Source of the DNA: Zootoca vivipara
Taxonomy: Eukaryota
Reading direction: 5' to 3'
Assembly: GCF_963506605.1 (NCBI RefSeq)
Contig: NC_083281.1
Location: forward strand, 16,244,001 to 16,308,000
Length of the DNA stretch: 64,000 bases
Made by a program: the position numbers and the translations under genes. The notes below the pieces were generated by a model. That model made no database searches. It was not told where the DNA came from and was given only the letters and a program-made list of their open reading frames with translations. Below, one piece after another: positions 25,197 to 59,800 of this stretch; position 1 is the first letter of the stretch; each line of letters starts with the position of its first letter.

Positions 25197-25396
25197 NNNN
25201 NNNNNNNNNNNNNNNNNNNNNNNNNNNNNNNNNNNNNNNNNNNNNNNNNNNNNNNNNNNNNNNNNNNNNNNNNNNNNNNNNNNNNNNNNNNNNNNNNNNN
25301 NNNNNNNNNNNNNNNNNNNNNNNNNNNNNNNNNNNNNNNNNNNNNNNNNNNNNNNNNNNNNNNNNNNNNNNNNNNNNNNNNNNNNNNNNNNNNNNN
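25197..25396. other. Assembly gap (200 N)
   Basis: Run of n characters. Confidence 0.99.
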
Positions 25397-25659: not shown

Positions 25660-26260
25660 AAGGAGCGGGGTCGACTCGAGGCAGGACATGGGCAGCCTGA
25701 GGATACGGCGGGTGGTCGTTGGCGATGCCTTCCGCCTCTCGCCTAGGAAATCCACGCGTCGGCGTTCGCGTAACGTCGGAACGGTCTTTGTACACGTGAA
25801 CGGGGCGCAGCCGAGACCCCTCCCCCCGCCGCCGCTCGCCCTCCTACACGTGCCTCCCCGCCCCTCCCACCCGTCAAGGCGCCCGGCCCCGCCCTCGCAC
25901 ATGTCTCCGCGTTCTGTCCCCGCCCCGTCACGTGCCCGCGCACCGGGCTCCTCGCCTCGCACGTGGCTGGTGAGGCCGCCCAGGAGGGCCGGGCGCCTGG
26001 CAAGAGCCTAGCCCATTGGCTGGCGGGGCCGCCGCTCAGTGCGGAGGGACGGGGCTACGGCTGCCGCCGCCGCCGCTGTCGCGACCTTTGTGTCGGGGAA
26101 GGAAGGAAGAGCGGACAGGAGGGCGCAGGTAAAGACTCCCCTTCTCCGCCTCGGGTGCATGGCTCCGGGGAGGGCGCGGGGGAAGGGGGCGCCTTGCAGG
26201 GGGAACGAGAACCGCCCCCGCGCCGTGGGCCACGATTGCACAGCCCCCTCCCTCCCTGCA
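25660..26260 (+). promoter_or_regulatory. CpG-island promoter with E-box cluster and probable non-coding exon 1 of the CIPC-like gene
   Basis: CACGTG at 25793, 25847, 25929 and 25960; CACGCG 25753; CACATG 25898; GC boxes; ATTGG near 26014; donor CAG|GTAAAG after 26128. Confidence 0.7.
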
Positions 26261-33151: not shown

Positions 33152-36100
33152 AGATGGAGGACAGCAGTCCTTCTAAATACCTCCTGACCTGTAGGAGGGG
33201 AGAGGGCTCTTGTGCTCGGATCCTGGTTGCAGGTTTCCCACAGGCATCTTGGTCAGGACTGGCCTGATCCAGAAGGCTCTTCTTAGGATCCTGGAGGAAC
33301 TGTGGATATGCACAGCTGGCCCAGGCTTTTTTCTGGGAATTCCCAGCAGCAAGAGGGATTGGCCGCAGCAAATGTGCCTCCTTCGCTGCATACCCCCCCC
33401 CCCCCAATCCTGTTAAAGTACGGCTGGGACAATCCAAGCGGCTTGGCTGCCTGTTTATATCTAGGCATCCTTTGCGTTTCAAATCCTTTCTTCCAGAGGG
33501 TCTCGAAAAGTTTGCTGCTGAGACTAGGCGTGTTGAAAAGCTTCGCTGGCTGGAGCTGATTTGAACAATAGACTCCTGGAACTGTAGAGTTGGAAAGGAC
33601 TTCAAGTGTCATCTAGTCCAACCCCCTGCAATGCAGGAATCACAACTAAGGGGAAGGGGCACAAAGTGGGGTCCTCCCCGCACCCCCAGAGCAGTGCACT
33701 GTGTTGTGATGGGGGGGCTTAATTTTGTAGGTGCTGCGGGACTCACGTTTTCTCGTGCCAAATCTTCCTTGGCTTCCTGATGGAAGAAGTGAGATGTTTC
33801 TGCCTGGAGGCAGGCAGTGGCTTTTCCAAGAGAGAATCGAGAGTTTCACTTCCCGTTGGGGTCTCCCCATAGAATCGTCAAATTGCAGAGTTGCAAGGGC
33901 CCCCCCGTGGGTCATCTAGTCCAACCCCCTGCAATGCAGGAATCACAACTAAGGCACCCATGGCGGGTGGCTACCTGACCTCTGCTTAAAAACCTCCAAG
34001 GCAGGAGAGTCCACCACCTTTCATGAGAATCTCTTCCGCTCTCGGAACAGCTCTTCCGCAGCCTTCCCCTGTTCCATCAAGCTTGCAGCTCCGTCAGAAA
34101 AAGAAAGGAAGGAATGAGATTCGTTTGGCAGCGCTTGTTTTTTTTTTATAGAAAAAACCATGCTGGGTCTTCAGAACTATTTTATTTTGTTGTGCTCCTG
34201 GAACAACACAAAACTGTTTGGACCGGAAGCGAAAGCCGGAAGATGCTTCTGCCTTCCCCGTCAGGAGGGAAGGGGGACTCCTGGCTCCCTCCCTCCCTCC
34301 TCCTTTGTCTGCCTGTGCCTCATGCCTGATCCAGATTTAGTTCCGCCTGCCTCCTGCTGCGCCCCTTGTCTGGGTGGGAGGGAGGTGTGGCATGGGTGCG
34401 TGCGGGGGAAGATAATGAATGGAGCGCCCTCTCTTTTTCCCTTCCTCCAGCTGCGCCTCGTGTGTGTGCGCTGCTCCATGTGACGCCGTACTTCTAAGCT
34501 GTGTCCATATTTAGGCAGCGGAGTCTCTGCCTCTCCCGCCCCCCCCCCCCGCACCTCCATGTGCAAGCACGCATGAGAGGGTGGGCTTGGGCGCCTCTCT
34601 CCCCTCCCCTCTTCCACAACTTTCCCATGGCTGATCGGATGGCCCTGCCCCTAGAGACACCTCCCTGCGCCCGGTTATGGCGGAAAGGTTATTTTCTCCC
34701 CGGCTTGGCTGGAGAGGGGAGCTGAGCCCTTGCCACAGATGATGGAGAGGCGAAGCCTTTGAGGTAGGGGTTTTGGACGGCAAAGTCTCTCCCTTTTCTG
34801 GAAGGGTGAGTGCCGAGCAGGTACGTGGGGCTCCATCGAGTGAAGGAGGGGAGGCTGGCGGCTTGTGGGGTTGTGATGGACCTTTGGGTACGGCTGGGTT
34901 ACGGCTGGCATGTCTCGTTCTGTCTTCGACATCTCATTCTCCGCAGGCTTCTGCTGATTCTCACTGCGGCTTTCGGGAATTCGTGTGTGTGTGTGGGGGG
35001 GGGCAACCCAGACACACACCCTCTCCCGGTTGACCCCCAGGTCTCCTCTGCGTCATCAGCTGGAGCCCACTGGTTATTTATTTTATTCATTGCATTTATA
35101 TGCCAGCTTTTATTACCTCCAAGGATCCCAAGGGGGGCACCCATGCCTCTCCCCCACACCATTTAACCTCCGCAACAACAACAACCCTGTGAGGTAGGCT
35201 AGGCTGGGAGGCAGTGACTGACCCACAAGGTCACACCCAGTAAGCTTCATGGCCGAGTGGGGGGGGATTCAAACCCTGGTTTCCCAAGTCTTAGTCCGGT
35301 GCTCTAACCATTACACTACACTGTCTTTCCAGATTTTTCCTCCTAGAAGCTCCGGGTATGGTGTTCTTATCGCCATTTCTTTTGTTAGACGGACAATGGG
35401 GTGGGTTTGTGCCAAGTTTCTGGGTACCTGCCTGATAAATCATCCCCACAATTTAGGTGCGACTTTGTCCCTGGCGCCCCGGAATTGTGGCAGAGTTCCC
35501 AGAACGCCACAGGGGCTGAGAGTATGGGAACCCTTGGCTTGGTGAAATAGGGCAGCGGGTGAATTTTGCTTTTTAAGGTAGGGTGTGTATGTGTGTGTGA
35601 GGCAGAAGAGGTGGAACTCGTCTGGGAGGTCTGCCCTGGTGGTTTTGGACGAGGGTGGGTTTCCCGAGCGCACACAGCTGCCTAAACCCGCTGCCGCTTT
35701 CCTGCATTGCAAAGGGGTTGGACTAGATGACTCTTGGGAGTCCCTTCCCAGCTCTGCAATTCTGCGACACGCCTCCACTCTGGCCGTATCCATAAAATTA
35801 TAACTGTGGCACGGAGGCAGGGGGGTGGGGCAGAGGCTGAGCCCCCTTGGTCACAGGCCAGGCTGAGCCCCACAAAGTGCAGCCTCCCTCCCTCCCCCCA
35901 AGGAACGGGGGGGGACACAGGGACGCACGCCTATGCGTGAGGTGCGTGTGGGTCTCCGTGTGCTGGGAACACGCTGTACACCATTGCGTAATCTTTGGCT
36001 CTGCTTGGGAAACGTAGTAGTTGAGCCTGCCTCTCTCCCCTCCCCCCAGTCTGGGCGGGGTGTAAACAAAAGCACATGGCTGGCCAGCTGACTCTGGCTG

Positions 36101-41116: not shown

Positions 41117-41695
41117 TAGATGACTTTAAAAGAGGATTGGACAAATTCATGGAGGAGGAGAGGGCTATCGATGGCTACTAGCTAGCATGGCTCTGCTCTG
41201 CCGTCACGGTCGGAGGCAGCAAAGCTTCTGAAGACCAGTTGCTGGAAACCACAGGAGGGGACCACTTTTGTGCTCGGATCCTGCTTGCTGGCTTCCCATA
41301 AAGGGCATCTGATTGGCCACTGTGAGAACAGGATGCTGGACTAGATGGGCCCCCTTTGGCCTGATCCAGGCTCACAGCTCTTCTTGAGTTTTCCACACCT
41401 AGTTTCTTCTTCTTTAATGAATAAAGCAGGTGGTTTCCCCACGGTTAGTGAATCTGCAGATCCCTTAAAGACTCCCTCGAGAGGTAGTGGCCTCTACTTC
41501 ATTGGAGGTTTCTAAGCAGAGGTTGGGTGGTCGTCATGGATGCTTTAGCTCAGATTCCTGCATTGCAAGGGGGTTGGACTGGATGACCCTCGGGGTCCCT
41601 TCGAACTCAACAGTTCTACGATTCTAAGTTCTCCTGTTCCACTAACATCCTGCTTTTGTCTCTCTGCCCCTCAGGAACCCAGGAGAGTCTCAACC

Positions 41696-44600
41696 ATGCC
41701 TTCAGACAAGACCTCTCCGCTTGTGCACCCTTCTAAGCTTGGGAAGGAAAAGACCATCTTGTCTGGGTCCCTGAAGGCAGAGAGCTCCAACTCTGAGGGC
41801 CACATGGGACAGTCCAAACCCACGATGATGAGAGGCTCTGGCAGGAGGCCTCGCCCCCCTGCGAGTGAAGGGGAGAAGGACTCTGGATTTTCAGGTACAG
41901 ACCCTCCCAGCAGCTGCCCCCCTGCTGTCAGGCTGAGAGCCGGACCATGGGACTGCAGTGTGAGCAGAAAAGGAGGCCCTCCCCTCCCCTTGCTGCTTTA
42001 GCTCTGGCATCTGAGAGGCCTCATTGTCTAGCTCCTTGCAGCCCAGAGGCAGAGAGACTGGCTACTCGAGCATGGCAGCATCCTCTTTGGCCGCCGTTTT
42101 ATTTATAATTTTTTTTACACCGCTCTAAAGTAAAAATACAAACAAACCTTAAAGCGGTTTACAAGAAAAGATAAAGCAGCACACTTGTCACCAAGAAAAA
42201 GTACGCAACAACAATTTAAAAACTTTTCAAAAAGTTAAAATAATGGTAAAAACAGATTGGAACTCTCATCTGGGTAGGCGCTGCTTGCCCAAGTGAGAAG
42301 GTTTTTAGCAGGTGCTGAAAAGTGCACCGTGAAGCCACCTGCCTGATATTGTGAGGCAGGGAATTCTAAACTGCATTTGTATGTGGCTCCCACCCGCATG
42401 TCTCAGCCTGAGCACGTGCGGAAAGGGGGCAGCCAGAGACAGGCCCCAGAATGAATGTCGCCCTGGCAATAATGGTTTGGTTGCTCGATGGCCTGCTTCT
42501 AAGGAGAGGAAGCTGAATAATTTGAGAGGGGAATGTTAGTTCATATTTACTTGAGAAGGGGGCGAAGGATTTCCCTGTCATCCTGCAGCACCGACCTGAG
42601 AAAGTGCCACTTTTGAGAAAAAGAGAGAGCAAGCAACTTCAGAGGTTGATTTCAAAGGCCTGACGCCAAGCACCATGATCTGCAATTGTGGGTGCTATTC
42701 ATGGGTCCCCTGTGTTGCACCCTTTCCAAAGCTTTTGTTGTCTGACCAACATGTTTTGCATAAACCACACAAGTGCAGCTGCAACCGGTTGGAGTTTATT
42801 TTTATTTTTTAAAAAAATACCTATCTTGTGGGTCAACTAGGTTGTTGAGCAAGTTCACCCTGCAAATCACAGGTTTCCTTTCGCAGCTTGGTGCATTGCT
42901 AAGAAGAGCGGTTCTCTCCAGTCTCGGAGGTTGGATTTGGCTGGTGTAATGATATTCGCAGGGATAACCTCTGCTCAAGAGAGAGTTTCATACTTAAGAC
43001 GCTCTTAGATTGGCCGTCTCCTTAAGTTAGAGCAATTCCACATGGGCCACAGGAGTTGCTCACGGGGTAAATGGCGATGTGAACTGTCAGTGTCTTAGAT
43101 TTGGCATTCTGGTCTGTCGACTCCCCTTATAATGTAGCACTGGATTTTATTTTTATTTCTTTCTGACATTTACATCGCATCCTCCCCACCGTGGAGCCCA
43201 AGGTTGTGCACATGGTTCCCCATTCAGTCCCCACAACAACAACAACCCTGCAAGGTGGGTTGGGCTAAGAGGCAGTGACTGACCCGAGACTTCATGGCCA
43301 AGTGGGGATTCGAACCCTGGTCTCTCAGGTCCTAGTCCGGCACTCTAACCACTGCACCACACTGGTTCTCAGATACGTTTCTGCCCGGTTTAGATCGGAG
43401 GAGAGGCACCCGTCTAATCTCTTGCAAAGCCGTCCTCCTTGGGGGTTAGTGCAGGGGCTTCTCAGCAGACAGGGGTCAGGGGCTCCTGGATGAGGAAATG
43501 GGGAAGGGCTGCTGGCTGCTGCCGAGGTTTTAATGATTGCCCTGCTTTTTCCTTCCTGACTGCCTTAACCCCTCCTCTCCCCCATCCCTCTTTGGCAGAT
43601 GAGAGCTCGGAGCACCTGAGCGCCGTGGAGCAGACAGACGCGGAGGACCAGCCAGCCTACCCATTGCGCCAGGGGGGCGCGTTGCAGCGGGCGGCGCAGA
43701 AAGCGCATGGGGGGCTTGCGGGCGGAGCCTTCCCTGGCCTCACCCCCGTTTACATCGTCAAAAACGTTATCCTCAAACAGGTAGCCCCTTTTCACTCCCA
43801 GGCGTGACCCACTCATTGTCGTGGTCCGCTTTGCAAAGTACAGGAGGGAAGGTTCCTGCCCCGAGGGGTGTGCAAGTCATGGGACACCCCCCCCAGTGGA
43901 TTATGGGGAGGGGTGGAGTTTCACCCACCCGGTGGCCTTTTCCTCACTTTTGGTTCTTTGCTCTTCCTCCTCGCAGCCCCACGCAGCGTCCCCCACCACC
44001 CAGCTCTTAGCCTGGAACAGCCAGCACCCTCTCAGCAGCACCCAAGGCTCCCCCACCCACGTTCTCTTGATCCAGCCGCCATCAGGACCCTTGAAGCCGC
44101 TGTTTCCTGGCCAGAAGTCTCCCGCCAAGGAGGCTGCCTACCTCCCCATCCTCAGCACATACCCCAAAATTGCTCCTCACCCGGGTTGTGACCCACAGGT
44201 CAAGGGCCTGGAAGGGGGAGGAGGAGGAGGGTCCACCCCGGCAGGAGGGGCCAGCAAGAACAAACGCTTCTGCCTGGAGGAGGCCTGGGTGTCGTCGTCT
44301 GAAGCCGCCACCCCGAAAGGCAGCAGGGAGAAGCAGCGCAAGGAAGCGCCCCCCGCTTCCTCTGGCCAGCTCGCCTCCACCCTCCTCTGCCCGGAGGCGC
44401 TTTCCCAGAACACGGTATCGTCCTCCACAGGACTGGACTTGGCTGAGGGCAGGATGATCTCCAGAGCCTCCAAAAAGCTGGGCTGCAGCAGCTCGGGCAA
44501 GCAGCGCCGCTTCCACAACACGGTGCAGGTCCTACGGAAGTCAGGCCTGCTGGGCATCACGTTGAGGACCAAGGAGCTGATCCGGCAGAACAACAGCACC

Positions 44601-44882
44601 CAGTGGGAGCTGGCCCAGCTGCGGGAGCACGCCCAGCTCCTGTGCGAGGCCGTCCAGAGCAATGACTTCCGCGCCTGGGCCCGCCTCCAGGAGGCCATGG
44701 ACCGTTCTGCCAGCTATTGGGCCAAAAAGGGGGCTAGCTCCTCTTACACACATGTGTGGCAGCAGAGGCCGAAGGCCGAGACCACGGGCCCCACCACGGA
44801 GACCCCCGGGGAGCCCCTGCCCGGCTCACCGATGAGCCTGTCGCTCACGCCGGACACCTCGGTGCATGTGGCGCTGCCTTAG
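41696..44882 (+). CDS. CLOCK-interacting pacemaker (CIPC)-like protein, about 428 aa
   Basis: Exons 41696-41894 (..SEGEKDSGFS), 43599-43780 (DESSEHLSAVEQ..FPGLTPVYIVKNVILKQ) and 43977-44882 (YLPILSTYPKIAPHPG; KQRRFHNTVQVLRKSGLLGITLRTKELIRQNNSTQWELAQLREHAQLLCEAVQS..AWARLQ). These match recalled CIPC blocks. The total is 1287 nt in frame; AATAAA at 45645. Confidence 0.88.
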
Positions 44883-46139
44883 CTCCTCTGCCATCATGCC
44901 CTGGGCTGAAGGGTGTGGCTCCGGAAGAAAACCTCTTTGCAAGAATCTGTGTCTTGGCCACCAGGCCCTCAGCAACCCCAGCCTCTTGCCGTTGGTGAGG
45001 CTGAGGAGGCCATTGTGGAAGGCCGGATTAGGCCCCTCCTGACTGGACTGCTGACCCTTCAGGGGGTTTGTTGGCTGTTGAAGCCTGCTGTGTGCTTGTG
45101 GAAGGTTCCTGAGATAATCTTTGGGCTCCGATAAAATAATCTCAGCATGGGGAATGGGGTTGGGCTGGACTCTTGTTGGCCCAGTTTAGGATTGAAATAG
45201 CAGAGGAATTGTGTTCCTGGAGGCCGACAGGGCGAGGCCTTGGGCAGCCGGCACAGAAAGGTGCAACTGCTTTTGTATTGATTCATCCCATTTGCTCTCA
45301 GCTGGGATTTCGGAGCAGCAAATGTTTTAATATTTGAAACAGCCAGCCCTGAGAGGAAGATGGAGAGCAATATGGCCAAGGCCCATCTAAGGAAGTGTTG
45401 TATTTTAACTCATGCCTCTCTGGTAAGGAGCGCTCTCTCCTGCCCACTAAGTTGCTCCTTTGCTACAAAAGGAGTCTGTTTCCATCTTGACAGAATGGCC
45501 TCCGCTCACCCATTTTCTGGTTTTTGGGGAAGCGATGTAATGATGCTCTGACTGAAGGGTCTAGCGAGCGACATTCTGCCCCATTAGGAGTTCTGCCTCT
45601 GAAGCTTGCTTTGCTCCGCTGCCGACAGAAGATGGTCCAATAATAATAAAGAAATGATGATGATGGTGATGATGATGATAATCTGGTGTGTTATTAACTG
45701 CAAAAGGTCACCCCCCACCTCTTTCCATTGCTGTTTGTGGTGAGAAAGAGCTTGCTCCTTTGGGGGCTTGGGGGCTTTCCTCTAGGTCAGGACCCTTTGA
45801 AACCTGGCAGTCTCTCTAGTGAAATGGGACGGCGGGAGGGTAAGACGCTGGATTTCTTCCCTCTCCCTTTGCCAGTGGATGTTGCAAAGAAAACAAATGG
45901 GGGCTAGCTTTCCATTTCTGTCTTCACCTTCATTTGTTTGATGCCTAATGTGATTGAAATCGAATGCAAATAGTGTGTTGTGGATTTCTTCAGCTACTAC
46001 ACGAGTCAGCTTTATTTTGGTCCGGGGAATTATCAGTGCTGGATGCCTGATTTAGCAAGAAGATACTTGATCCAGTTTGCACTTAAAGGCGAACCCACAC
46101 AATTCACAATTTCCAGAACCACGCGAAAACTACGATTTT

Positions 46140-51390: not shown

Positions 51391-53712
51391 TAATAGCGGT
51401 AACCTACAGAACATATAAAACACTTACAAAACATTGCATATAAAAACATGCAATATAAAACAGAATTTGGTAAAAACTAGGATGCATCATGTGTGTTTTG
51501 TGCACTGGGGAATGTTTAGTGAAATCCGCGTCTAGAGAAAGTTAGCCAGTCGAGAGAGCTCTGAGTTTCAGGGCCTGCAAGATATAGATGGCCACTCCAC
51601 GGGTAATCCTGGGGTTAGCGTCCACCAATAGAAATTTCATGCGGTCATCTTCCAAGGCGATAAGCGAAGGGATTAGTGTGAGGAGCCTTGGTCTTATTGC
51701 GTCGTATAAGGGGCAGTGAAAGAAAAAATGGATAAAATCCTCTATCTTTCCCTTGTTGCACGGGCAGAGTCGGAGATCGGGGGGAGTGTTGGAAAATATA
51801 CCCTGTAAAAATGCTGTGGGAATGGAATGGAAGCGGGCAAGTGTGAAGGCCCTTCTTTGTGAAGGGTTCGTCAGGTCGCTCAAATAGTGAGCCATAGTTC
51901 TTACTGCCTTCACACGATAACATGTGGATAGGTTGGCCGCATTAGATAGGGCCAGGTCCAATGCTTCGTCCCTATCTAGAATCCATTTACGGATTTTATC
52001 ATTGTCCCAAGCGATCAGAGCGGAGAAAGTTGGGAGGGAATAGCGTTCACAGATGGCCTCCGTGCCTTTTGACCTAATGTGGCTGCCAGTAAAGGCTAGA
52101 AAGGCTTGTTTGGCAAGAAGCAAGTTGGGGGCTTCTGCAAGAGATTTATAATAAGTGATTATCCTGGTGTGAGCTCTTGCCACAATAGATGGCAGTCCCA
52201 GTTCCATTCTTAATTGGGCGGGGATGGTCCCGTTGGGGAGACCCAAGATCTTTCTTACCAGGAGGTTTTGCAGGGTCTCCAGGCGTTGGAGTGCTTTCAA
52301 ATTCCACCCCCATATTTCCACCCCGTATAGCAACATTGGAGGGATTTTGCTGATGTAGACCTTTCTTATTGGCGCCACCAGCTGGCCTCCTTTGGCATAT
52401 AAATTTTTTACCACGGCCTCCATGGTTTGGCGGCCGGCCAAAATGATCGTGTTTAGGTGAGCTGACCACGATAGCCTATGATGGAAAGTAATGCCCAAGT
52501 ATTTAAAAACTGGGCATTGTTCTATGGTGTTGCCCTCGAGAGTCCACAAAGGACTCCGTTTCCGCGTGCCAAAGGGTATGATTTTGGTTTTGGAGTAATT
52601 GATTTTCAATGAGTTTTCCTCACAATATTGCATAAGCCCTTTCAACATGTTGTTAAGTCCTAACTTTGTTAACGAGAGGACTGCCATATCGTCCGCATAG
52701 AGTAAGATGGGGACTTTAGCCTGATTCAAAGACGGGGCAGGTTGGTTAAGGGCTTTTATAGCTGGTACAATATCGTTTATATAAAAATTGAACAAAAAGG
52801 GAGCCAAAAGGCAGCCTTGTTTGACACCTCTGGCTAGTGGAAAGGGGCGTGATAGAGCGCCGTGTGGTCCAAATTTCACTCTGGCCGATATGTCTGAGTG
52901 AATTTCCATTAGCAGGCATAAGAGCCTTTTGTCTATAGTAGTTGAGCTAAGCTTCTGCCAGAGTCTGGATCTGTCAATAGAGTCAAAGGCGGAGGACAAA
53001 TCAATGAAGGCTACATATAATTTGGAGTTATACTTGGTTTGGTATTTATCAATCAATGATTGGAGAACCAGACAGTGGCCTGAGGTGTTATGGCCTTTGC
53101 GAAAGCCCGCTTGTTCTGGGTGGAAAAGCCCTATTTCATCAGCCCAGCTGGACAGCTTCTCGAGAAGGAATCTAGAGTAGATCTTGTAGGTTATGTCCAG
53201 TAGGCTGATAGGCCTATAGTTAGAAGGATCTTGCGGGTTCCCCTTTTTATAGATAGGAATGATTGTGCTCTTTTTCCAATCTGTCGGAAGCGTAAGTGAA
53301 GAGTTTATGGTGGTAAAGAGAGAGGCTAGTGTAGTTGCCCACCAAAGTTGGTTTGATAGAAAAACCTCGGGTGGTAGCATGTCTTCCCCGGGTGATTTTC
53401 CACCCTTTAGCAAACCAATCAGCTGGAAGCATTTCTTTGAGGAGACCGGATCCCATATGGTGAGAGAGGAGCTGCAGCAAGCCAGAGGGATTGGGTTTTT
53501 ATTTGGAAGAGGCACGGCGTATGCCAGCTATCTGCAGGAATGTTGTTGCAGGGGGGGCAGGGGAGGTTAAGCCCGAGTTTATTAGTTGCCAAAATTTCTT
53601 ATCATCTCGGCGTCTAGTAGCAGCGTCCAATTCGGTCCATTGTTCTTTGGCAAAGAGTAGTTTCTTGAGTTTAAGTAACTGTTTGTAGTGTGTGCGGAAT
53701 TGAGCAACCGCC
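51285..53712 (-). mobile_element. 5'-truncated non-LTR retrotransposon, probably RTE-X clade, with a 657-codon open RT frame (51542-53515)
   Basis: RT motifs NYRPISLL, QAGFR, FIDLSSAFDSI, GVKQGCLLAPFLF, LLYADD, YLGI; C-terminal CPC..ED..HFFFHCP knuckle; 3' end with AATAAA then a short (TTGA)n tail. Confidence 0.88.
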
Positions 53713-56855: not shown

Positions 56856-59800
56856 ATGGAACTCTTTGGAGTGTTGCCCTTCTTGCTGGTCTCCTGCATC
56901 ACCTTCTTGCTTATCCTAATCCGGAGGAGAGATGCCACAAAGGGCAAACTGCCCCCAGGCCCCACCCCATTGCCTTTGATAGGCAACTTGCTCCAGTTGA
57001 ATATTCGGGACATCATCGGGTCTTTTAATAAGGTGAGTGTAGGTCTCTGCTGCGTAGCGTTTGGGGGGGGGGAGCCAAGGAGCTGATTGTTTATTTCCTT
57101 GACATCTGATGGGAGGGCGTTCCACAGGGCAGGTGCCACTACCGAGAAGGCCCTCTGCCTGGTTCCCTGTAACGTTGCTTCTCTCAGTGAGGGAACCACC
57201 AGAAGGCCCTCGGAGGTGGACCTCAGTGTCCGAGCAGAACGATGGGGATGGAGACACTCCTTCAGGTATACTGGTGTTTCAAGTGTTCAGGATCTTTCCT
57301 TTGCTGCACCACCTGATTATGTTTCAATACAAGTAGATATTTCTTCTCGTTATCAGCAAGTAGCTGCTTGGGAGCTCATGGGCAGCTTCTTAGCTTTTAC
57401 CTTTTCACCGGGATGCGGTAACATTTTGTCCAAATTTTATAAATATTTTTATTAAGTTTTACATAACGAATTCCAATTAAAACATATCACAATCACCTTA
57501 CATTTAGGATTCTCAGAATCCCTTGACTTCCCCCCGCCCTTCTCTGGTTTCCATTTCCCATCTCTTTTTATTCAACTTATCCATATATATATATTCAACT
57601 TTTGATATGTCTATTATTTAACTTTTCCTTTATATTTTATCCTTTACAAGTATTACTCCAATCCCGCCAAAGTTTTTAGCTGTTTATAATGTTCTCTTAA
57701 ATAAACTATACATTTTCTCCCTTCTTTCTTAAACTTCTTCTCGTCCTGGTCTCTGATTCTCCCAGTCATTTTGGCATAGTCCATCATCTTCATCAGCCAT
57801 TCTTCTCTGGTTGGAACTTTGTCTTCTTTCCATCTATGGGCCAGTAGTATTCTTGCTGCTGTCATAGCATACATAAATAGTCTTTTCTGCTCTTTTGGAA
57901 TCTCTGTACCTATAATGCCTAGAAAAAAGCCTCTGTTTCTTTCACAAAAGTTATTTTAAACATTTTTTATCCCATTATATATCATTTCCCAGAATGCTTT
58001 TGTTACCTTGCACGCCCAGCACATGTGGAAAGACGTGCCTTCCTTTTCTTTGAATTTCCAACATGTATTAGAAGCAGTTCAATACATCTTTGCTAATTTC
58101 ATTGGTGTTAAATACCATCTATACATCATTTTCATATAGTTTTATTTCTACGAACAGCACACTGCAAATTTTAAATTTTCCTTCCATAGTTTTTCCCAAG
58201 ATTCAAATTGAATGCTATGCCCTATATCTTGTGCCCATTTTATCATTACTGATTTGACTTCTTCATCTTTTGTTCAAACCTTGAAAATTCTGTACTGAAT
58301 CATCTTTTCTTATCTACTTTAAACACTTCATTTATTTGGTAGTATTGCAACCAACCTGTAACTAGCTGTCTTATGTCTTCCATATTTTTTAATTTCAATT
58401 GCTGTTCTCTTTCAATGAGCAGCTCTTTATAAGCTGCCGATTCTGCTCTTACATTAACTTTTTTTAAGGATATCGCTTCAATTGGTGAGAGCCACCATGG
58501 GGTTTTCTGTTCTAACAATTTTTTATACTTTCCCCATACACTATAAATTGCATTTCTTATTACATGATTTAAAAAACCTTTATGCACTTTGGTCTTCTCA
58601 TACTACAAATATGCATGTCATCCAAATCTGTTATCATGACCTTCAAGGTCTAAAATATCTGTGTTTTCCCATGTTATCCATTCCTTTAGCCAGCAGAGAC
58701 AGGATGCCTCATAATACAATTTTAAATCTGGCAGAGAGAAGACCCCTCTTTCTTTATCATCTGTTATCAATTTATATTTATTCCTTGGTTTCTTCCCCTG
58801 CAAGATAAATTTAGTTACATATTTTTGCCATTGCTTGAAGTGCTCCTCCCCACTGGCCACAGGTATTGTCTGAAATAAAAACAACATTTTCGGAAATACA
58901 TTATCTTTGTAACAGAAATTCTTCCCCAAAGTGATCAATTCATTCTTCCTCAAATCTCCAGATTCCTCTTTATCTCTTTCCAAGTTGTTCTATAATTATC
59001 CTTAAATATATTTATATTCTTAACAGTTAGCCATACACCCAAATATTCCACCTTTTTTCAAAGGATAATTGCATTGCTAGTTGTAATTCCTTCCACTGTT
59101 ATTACAAGGTCATATGTAAATGCTCTTTATTTATATTCTTTGCACCCACTTTTTGTCCAAATTTTAAGCACTAAGGTGTGATTGATTGATCTCCTGGCAG
59201 CTCCGGAAGCAGTATGGTCCAATCTTCACTGTCTACATGGGCTCCCGGCCAATTGTGGTGCTGTGCGGTTATGAAGTCATCAAGGAAGCACTTGTGGATA
59301 ACGCAGAAACATTTGGAGGAAGGGGACCAATAGAGACCTTGGATGACACCTTGTCGAAATACGGTGGGAGAAATTTGCCTTGCAATGTTAGAAGGCAATT
59401 AATTGATTAATATGTATACCACCCAATCCCACTAAACCTCAGTGTAGTTCAGGAATGGTGGATTACCTGCTTTTGCATGCAGAATGTCCCAACTGCAGTC
59501 TTTGGCATTTGCTCGAGACCCTGGAGAGCGGCTGCCAGTCAGTTTGCTGAGTTAGATGGACCAGGGGGTTGGACCAGAAGACCAGGGGGATCCCTTCCAA
59601 CTCTATGTATCTAAGGCAGATTCCTATGTTCCTTTTCTTCCTATGATCCCTTTCTGGCTTTGTGAATGTGCTGGGAGTGATGGGAGAAAAGGGTGAGGCT
59701 TAAAAAAATCACGAGGAGTCCAAAGAGAGGTGCAGGCATGAATTTGTCTTGTTCGGTTGTGCCATCTCCAGGGGTAGCACTACAAGACTTAATCTACCCC

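Follow-up and report, generated by a model that had tools for sequence, protein, structure and literature searches.

A second, ancient lineage of vertebrate CIPC in the lizard Zootoca vivipara, where it is the only CIPC found and a likely substitute for the mammal-type gene

Introduction

The closest described relative of the gene presented here is mammalian CIPC (KIAA1737; PF15800; PDB 5VJI/5VJX), which, according to the available sections of PMC12285964, binds the exon-19 region of CLOCK and is a repressor of CLOCK-BMAL1 that has no need of CRY. The same sections report that CIPC knock-down shortens the period in cells, and that in the Cipc knockout mouse the locomotor period is unchanged and the Per1 peak is halved; CIPC is called vertebrate-only in one passage, and a Drosophila ortholog is cited in another (PMC12285964). 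In zebrafish, a gene designated si:ch211-132b12.7 moves together with per1a, nr1d1, ciart and cipca in the accessible part of PMC5397488, and it is placed under circadian rhythm in that of PMC9748118. Loss of an ortholog with retention of its paralog has been described in squamates for CAV3, KDM3A, ADAP2 and other genes in the available portion of PMC13005343. CIPC is not discussed in that portion of this 2026 squamate gene-loss screen, being absent from the main text and present as one bare supplement entry that fits the human input-gene list. A term search of 12 of the 19 supplementary files of PMC5901865 gave no match, and we found no paper on two vertebrate CIPC lineages or on squamate CIPC loss in the mostly open literature; public gene trees may already show the split.

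Here we describe a gene, CIPC-B, found in a 64,000-nucleotide stretch of the Zootoca vivipara genome (the window, whose positions are used below unless a chromosome is named). It is an intact, spliced gene of a second CIPC lineage and the sole CIPC found in this species, and there is a strong likelihood that it stands in for mammal-type CIPC, being driven by CLOCK and repressing it in turn through a predicted binding to exon 19. CIPC-B resembles mammalian CIPC in its motif order, its family and, as far as a model shows, a 2:1 complex that involves CLOCK exon 19. Unlike mammalian CIPC, to which it is about 30% identical overall, it belongs to a lineage that has been separate since before the bony fish split, it carries blocks peculiar to B, for example KRFCLEEAW and EGRM(L/I)SRASKKLG, and it lies in an ERCC1/CYP2/NUMBL/IRF2BP1 block rather than in the ZDHHC22/IRF2BPL block of the mammalian gene.

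Structure and expression of the gene

The coding sequence of CIPC-B is divided among three exons on the forward strand. The first (41675..41894), supported by the frame and by RNA, starts at a splice acceptor 21 nt 5′ of the ATG at 41696 and encodes EKDSGFS at its 3′ end; the second (43599..43780), supported by the frame, Pfam and RNA, encodes SSEHLS...KNVILKQ; and the third (43977..44882), which runs to the stop and is supported by the frame, Pfam, RNA and a fold model, contains the YLPIL..KIAPHP block and the C-terminal helices. Both coding introns are GT-AG, and the coding parts (41696-41894, 43599-43780 and 43977-44882) form a 1287-nt frame of 428 aa. The 3′ UTR extends over 44883..45650 (+), with RNA cover stopping near 45637 and an AATAAA at 45645. 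Splicing was read from raw RNA runs and contigs, four runs in all, aligned to 41400-45800, in which, at low depth, intron 1 was spliced out in three of the four runs and intron 2 also in three of four.

The Pfam CiPC family (PF15800) is recognized in exon 3 (E 7.7e-47, 161 bits) and in exon 2 (E 1.1e-12, 49 bits), against a cut-off of 27 bits, and DSGFS, KNVILKQ, YLPILSTYPKIAPHPG and the C-terminal helix pair are all found in the protein, which is a 100% match to record P0001, "CLOCK-interacting pacemaker [Zootoca vivipara]". The frame, Pfam and the spliced RNA therefore agree with the initial annotation of this DNA, which had read here an intact CIPC-family protein of about 428 aa with the hallmark blocks. 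Its ERCC1/POLR1G/CYP2 neighbourhood is likewise present in the window, as a POLR1G-type last exon (PF08208), an ERCC1 gene (Rad10, with further exons recognized by motif) and a P450 gene that starts at 56856. CIPC-B is thus a real and expressed gene, annotated but misnamed, from the sister lineage of mammalian CIPC.

Two lineages of vertebrate CIPC

Five trees, built from 78, 32, 160, 38 and 27 chosen rows, each divide the CIPC family into two lineages; four of them omit unnamed and redundant rows, and one omits proteins shorter than 230 aa, which were classified by BLAST instead. In these trees lineage A comprises the CIPC of mammals, birds, turtles and crocodilians together with fish cipca and cipcb, and lineage B comprises the Zootoca gene and the "CIPC-like" proteins of turtles, alligators, ostrich, sharks and gar. 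The separation of A from B has a support of 100/100 in one tree and 100/98 in another, and forcing the squamate genes into one clade with amniote A is rejected by AU tests in two trees (p 2.3e-6 and 8.1e-5). Judged by these trees, vertebrate CIPC consists of two old lineages, and the Zootoca gene is a member of B and not an ortholog of mammalian CIPC; the family tree that the initial annotation had called for hence places it apart from the mammalian gene. The proteins named "CLOCK-interacting pacemaker-like" in turtles, alligators, ostrich, rhea, sharks, gar and teleosts are CIPC-B orthologs by tree, and the species with such records mostly keep A as well, unlike Zootoca. The teleost CIPC duplicates cipca and cipcb both fall within lineage A and are not the A/B pair; zebrafish si:ch211-132b12.7 is, we assume, the B gene of that species.

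A and B occur together in Lepisosteus, Latimeria, Lissotriton, Emydura, Alligator sinensis, Alligator mississippiensis, Sphenodon and Euleptes, and given that single species, gar and coelacanth among them, hold both lineages, the split must be older than bony fish. When the tree is rooted on lamprey and hagfish, A holds together firmly and B weakly (SH-aLRT 81, and unsettled in a second tree), and no lineage A member from cartilaginous fish was among the proteins retrieved, so that the date of the duplication is bracketed rather than fixed.

The chromosomal position of the gene bears on how the two lineages arose. Human CIPC presumably sits between IRF2BPL and ZDHHC22/TMEM63C; in Zootoca this block is on C1 and is without a CIPC match, and the CIPC gene is on C6 (16.29 Mb). 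IRF2BP genes are found at C1:29.03 Mb and C6:18.84 Mb, and NUMB-family genes at C1:44.67 Mb and C6:16.90 Mb, so these two mapped paralog pairs share their chromosomes, C1 and C6, with the two CIPC loci. The names IRF2BPL, ZDHHC22, TMEM63C, NUMB and NUMBL are presumed ones, in agreement with the Pfam family, length and orientation of each gene, and which IRF2BP or NUMB paralog is which was assigned provisionally from length and position. CIPC-B lies close to IRF2BP1 and NUMBL, whose block is the sister of the IRF2BPL/NUMB block, and we take the C1 block to be the counterpart of human 14q24 and the C6 block that of 19q13. The trees, the AU tests and the two pairs together bear out what the initial annotation had proposed, namely that the gene is a long-separated paralog of mammalian CIPC and belongs to a 19q13-type block. 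A and B would have arisen in the early vertebrate genome duplications, an origin that we infer with good support from two neighbour pairs rather than from a full synteny analysis.

The mammal-type gene in the Zootoca genome

Searches of the Zootoca genome with the Pfam profile, the C-terminus of the gene itself, rat CIPC and the A proteins of gecko and turtle returned only the CIPC-B locus, with everything else at E of 0.2 or more. These searches score first-look candidates only, and for this reason the 400 kb from the TMEM63 gene to past IRF2BPL were read directly. This stretch has no N and the expected gene order, and in its interval between ZDHHC22 and IRF2BPL, about 79 kb long, the A profile scored at most 6.3 bits where both side and strand were as expected, as compared with 102.7 for the CIPC-B gene itself. 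The highest A-profile score in the 400 kb was 9.9 bits, over 37 codons at C1:29,029,692-29,029,802 (+), 1.8 kb downstream of IRF2BPL; this match resembles the C-terminal helix of CIPC-A and exceeds the reversed-sequence null (at most 4.4). It lies on the wrong side of IRF2BPL, is wrongly oriented and has no upstream companion, even though a relic of A would here be part of one long exon, and it is probably due to chance. Two tblastn matches were dismissed as remnants of A, one at C1:28,976,713 (E 0.008), a proline-rich chance match without profile support, and one at C1:29,011,455 (E 0.02), which lies on the wrong strand.

CIPC-B is the only CIPC found in the Zootoca genome. The initial annotation had regarded it as a second, extra CIPC, and in this respect it does not stand, as this is the only CIPC locus found and the mammal-type gene is missing from its own place: the ZDHHC22-IRF2BPL interval on C1, the mammal-like setting in which a separate CIPC was to be sought, is empty. 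It had also set against its own reading a gene that was both the only CIPC of the genome and a 1:1 ortholog of mammalian CIPC; the former is true here, but the latter is false. Since the A locus is empty here and no mammalian B was found among the matches listed, mammals kept A and Zootoca kept B. Long open frames of LTR-retrotransposon type (-) were observed at C1:28,871,605-28,875,948 and 28,992,655-28,996,673, the second of them within the interval that lacks A.

Distribution and decay across vertebrates

Zootoca is the sole genome that was searched as DNA, and other species were surveyed through their proteins, namely the best 120 of 185, of 280 and of 210 matches and the best 150 of 414 representatives, two of the lists having started from A queries. 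Among the matches listed, 34 of the 36 named lepidosaur rows are B (a count that leaves out a 163-aa B-type fragment from Phrynocephalus), and the two A rows belong to tuatara and the gecko Euleptes; all 27 named rows from non-gecko squamates, representing 25 species, are B, although 50% clustering could mask other squamate A copies behind gecko A. The tuatara and Euleptes proteins rule out the idea that all lepidosaurs are without A. Both have damaged motifs and branches of 0.45 and 0.91, respectively, against 0.17 for turtle. In relative-rate tests against turtle, gecko A is accelerated (70:23, p 1e-6; significant with both outgroups), and tuatara A gives 53:27 (p 0.004, or p 0.08 with coelacanth as outgroup); the lepidosaur B copies show no acceleration (p 0.14-0.81). 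The tuatara and gecko A copies thus look eroded at the sequence level, with the proviso that their gene models may contain annotation errors.

Outside reptiles, B proteins come from sharks and rays, from ray-finned fish and coelacanth, from amphibians and from a few birds, and the retention in reptiles that the initial annotation had proposed is too narrow in this respect. No B was seen among the named mammalian rows in the matches listed, in keeping with the loss in mammals that it had proposed, and the bird B copies among these matches are those of ostrich and rhea and one eroded copy from an eagle. Two short, eroded B-type proteins, P0392 (Morphnus) and P0422 (Ascaphus), are annotated as uncharacterized. 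The pattern suggests that B decayed separately in neognath birds and in frogs. We infer clade-wide losses of CIPC genes from these proteins: A would have decayed in lepidosaurs and have disappeared from most, if not all, squamates other than geckos, and mammals would have lost B. The fish models P0088, P0090 and P0102, which join a PDGF/VEGF domain to CiPC, are probably read-through annotations of an adjoining gene.

Other readings of the gene's identity and origin can be weighed against these data. As the sole CIPC of its genome, and with the plain NCBI name CIPC, the gene could be taken for a 1:1 ortholog of mammalian CIPC that has relocated and diverged, as the database name implies; yet it clusters with turtle and alligator "CIPC-like" proteins whose species have a separate CIPC, the AU tests reject such a grouping, and tuatara and gecko have both genes, and we consider this reading, which retains next to no probability, to be already refuted. 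It is very improbable that CIPC-B is an extra CIPC beside a mammal-type copy that the assembly or the searches missed. The scoring of first-look candidates only, the 9.9-bit match near IRF2BPL and the strong divergence of gecko A, which means that a lacertid copy could be fainter still, would speak for a missed copy, but five genome searches with different queries were negative, the interval is gap-free and scores no more than 6.3 bits in the position and orientation expected of A, and A was found in none of the 27 non-gecko squamate rows among the matches listed. As for the origin of the two lineages, a single-gene or segmental duplication would be compatible with the poorly resolved base of B and with a mapping of two neighbour pairs, but both of these pairs are on the two CIPC chromosomes and the split is older than that between ray-finned and lobe-finned fish, which makes a small duplication unlikely and favours whole-genome duplication.

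Promoter and predicted binding to CLOCK

Upstream of the coding exons, a CpG-island promoter (25753..25965, +) contains CACGTG at 25793, 25847, 25929 and 25960, as well as CACGCG at 25753 and CACATG at 25898. Four CACGTG thus fall within 170 bases; dinucleotide shuffles of 25700-26128 had a mean of 0.11, and four were reached in none of 5000, and no CACGTG was found in the three other CpG-rich stretches of the window. A non-coding first exon (25990..26128, +, with an approximate 5′ limit) has its donor at 26128/26129 and is joined to the acceptor at 41675, with modest support: the link between promoter and CIPC-B consists of four reads from one run that stop at the acceptor, and whose 17 loose letters fit the exon end at 16 of 17 positions. 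The same acceptor takes a second, alternative non-coding exon, the 3′ end of which (34732..34763, +; donor 34763/34764) was recognized from contig loose ends in two runs, with 28 of 30 loose letters matching; this exon, ending at 34763 in two contig sets, is without a canonical E-box. The E-box cluster suggests a CLOCK-BMAL1 target by its appearance, and E-boxes are also bound by other bHLH factors. A 200-base assembly gap (25197-25396) lies 350 bases 5′ of the cluster. Farther upstream, a coiled-coil-like open frame of 161 aa (18975-19460, +), without a Pfam family above the cut-off, is possibly part of an unrecognized gene before the CIPC-B promoter.

The whole-length fold model of CIPC-B is mostly disordered (pLDDT 53.7), and a Foldseek search with it gave no match at E 0.001; an ESM Atlas search for relatives reported taxa at phylum level only. 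Its sole well-folded part is residues 308-368 (44517..44699, +), two helices with homology to the CIPC chain of PDB 5VJI (E 6.7e-15) and the predicted site for CLOCK exon 19. Over the crystallised segment, 37 of 61 residues are identical to rat CIPC, and this putative CLOCK-binding segment is the best conserved part of B, from sharks to snakes. A complex model of CIPC-B with two copies of the lizard CLOCK exon-19 peptide scored 0.76, the highest of three controls being 0.00, with at least 92% of contacts agreeing between runs and a partner pLDDT of at least 81; the mark used for such models is reached by 51 of 78 solved pairs and by 2 of 108 mismatched pairs. Of the 31 contact residues in the model, 21 by hand count are the same in rat CIPC and 10 differ. 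Given that a like complex, 5VJI, has been solved, the pass may reflect memory, and the model speaks for likeness rather than binding.

These observations can be joined into a CRY-independent side loop, in which CLOCK-BMAL1 would drive CIPC-B through the promoter E-boxes, and the C-terminal helices of CIPC-B would bind a pair of helices from CLOCK exon 19 and weaken transactivation. We think it probable, from the promoter and the modelled complex, that CIPC-B is driven in this way and damps CLOCK in return, replacing the lost A. We found no functional data on binding, repression or rhythm for any B protein in the literature, and this would leave room for a B that serves as a clock output under E-box control, or mainly does something else, such as the non-clock roles that have been reported for CIPC, without material repression of CLOCK-BMAL1. 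The mild phenotype of the mouse A knockout, as given in the available part of PMC12285964, and the difference between A and B in the second helix, together with the 10 of 31 modelled contact residues unlike rat, would fit such a gene. Conversely, the conservation of the putative CLOCK-binding segment and a model that favours binding speak against it, and we regard an output without repression as doubtful, with a small but real chance of being correct.

Implications for the naming and evolution of CIPC

In most lizards and snakes, the gene that databases list as "CIPC" is likely not the mammalian CIPC. Reptile studies that report "CIPC" are hence likely to measure another gene, for instance in Pogona, for which the retrieved protein is B-type (PMC9034607, as far as its accessible part goes). 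Compared with the squamate losses in the available portion of PMC13005343, the pattern is the same, with the difference that here the paralog is absent from mammals and inherited the name CIPC. CIPC-B is a candidate second CLOCK repressor of vertebrates, and the core clock model would stay as it is, since CIPC serves as an accessory brake whose loss has mild effects in the mouse.

Reciprocal or differential loss of duplicates is common. On balance we favour a reciprocal swap, in which all non-gecko squamates would have lost A and use an E-box-driven CIPC-B, mammals would have lost B, and most birds would apparently have lost or eroded B. If so, the CLOCK exon-19 brake is supplied by one ohnolog in lizards and by another in mammals, and animals with two copies, such as turtle, gar and zebrafish, could explain what single-gene knockouts miss. 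The species themselves offer a natural experiment, with A only in mammals, likely B only in most squamates, and both in turtles, crocodilians and fish.

Other features of the window

At 11482-12897 (+), a KRAB box and about ten C2H2 fingers are encoded in one uninterrupted frame, which is possibly a retrocopy, since KRAB-zinc-finger genes usually have introns there. A 660-aa open frame with a reverse-transcriptase domain, from a LINE-type element, occupies 51542-53527 (-).
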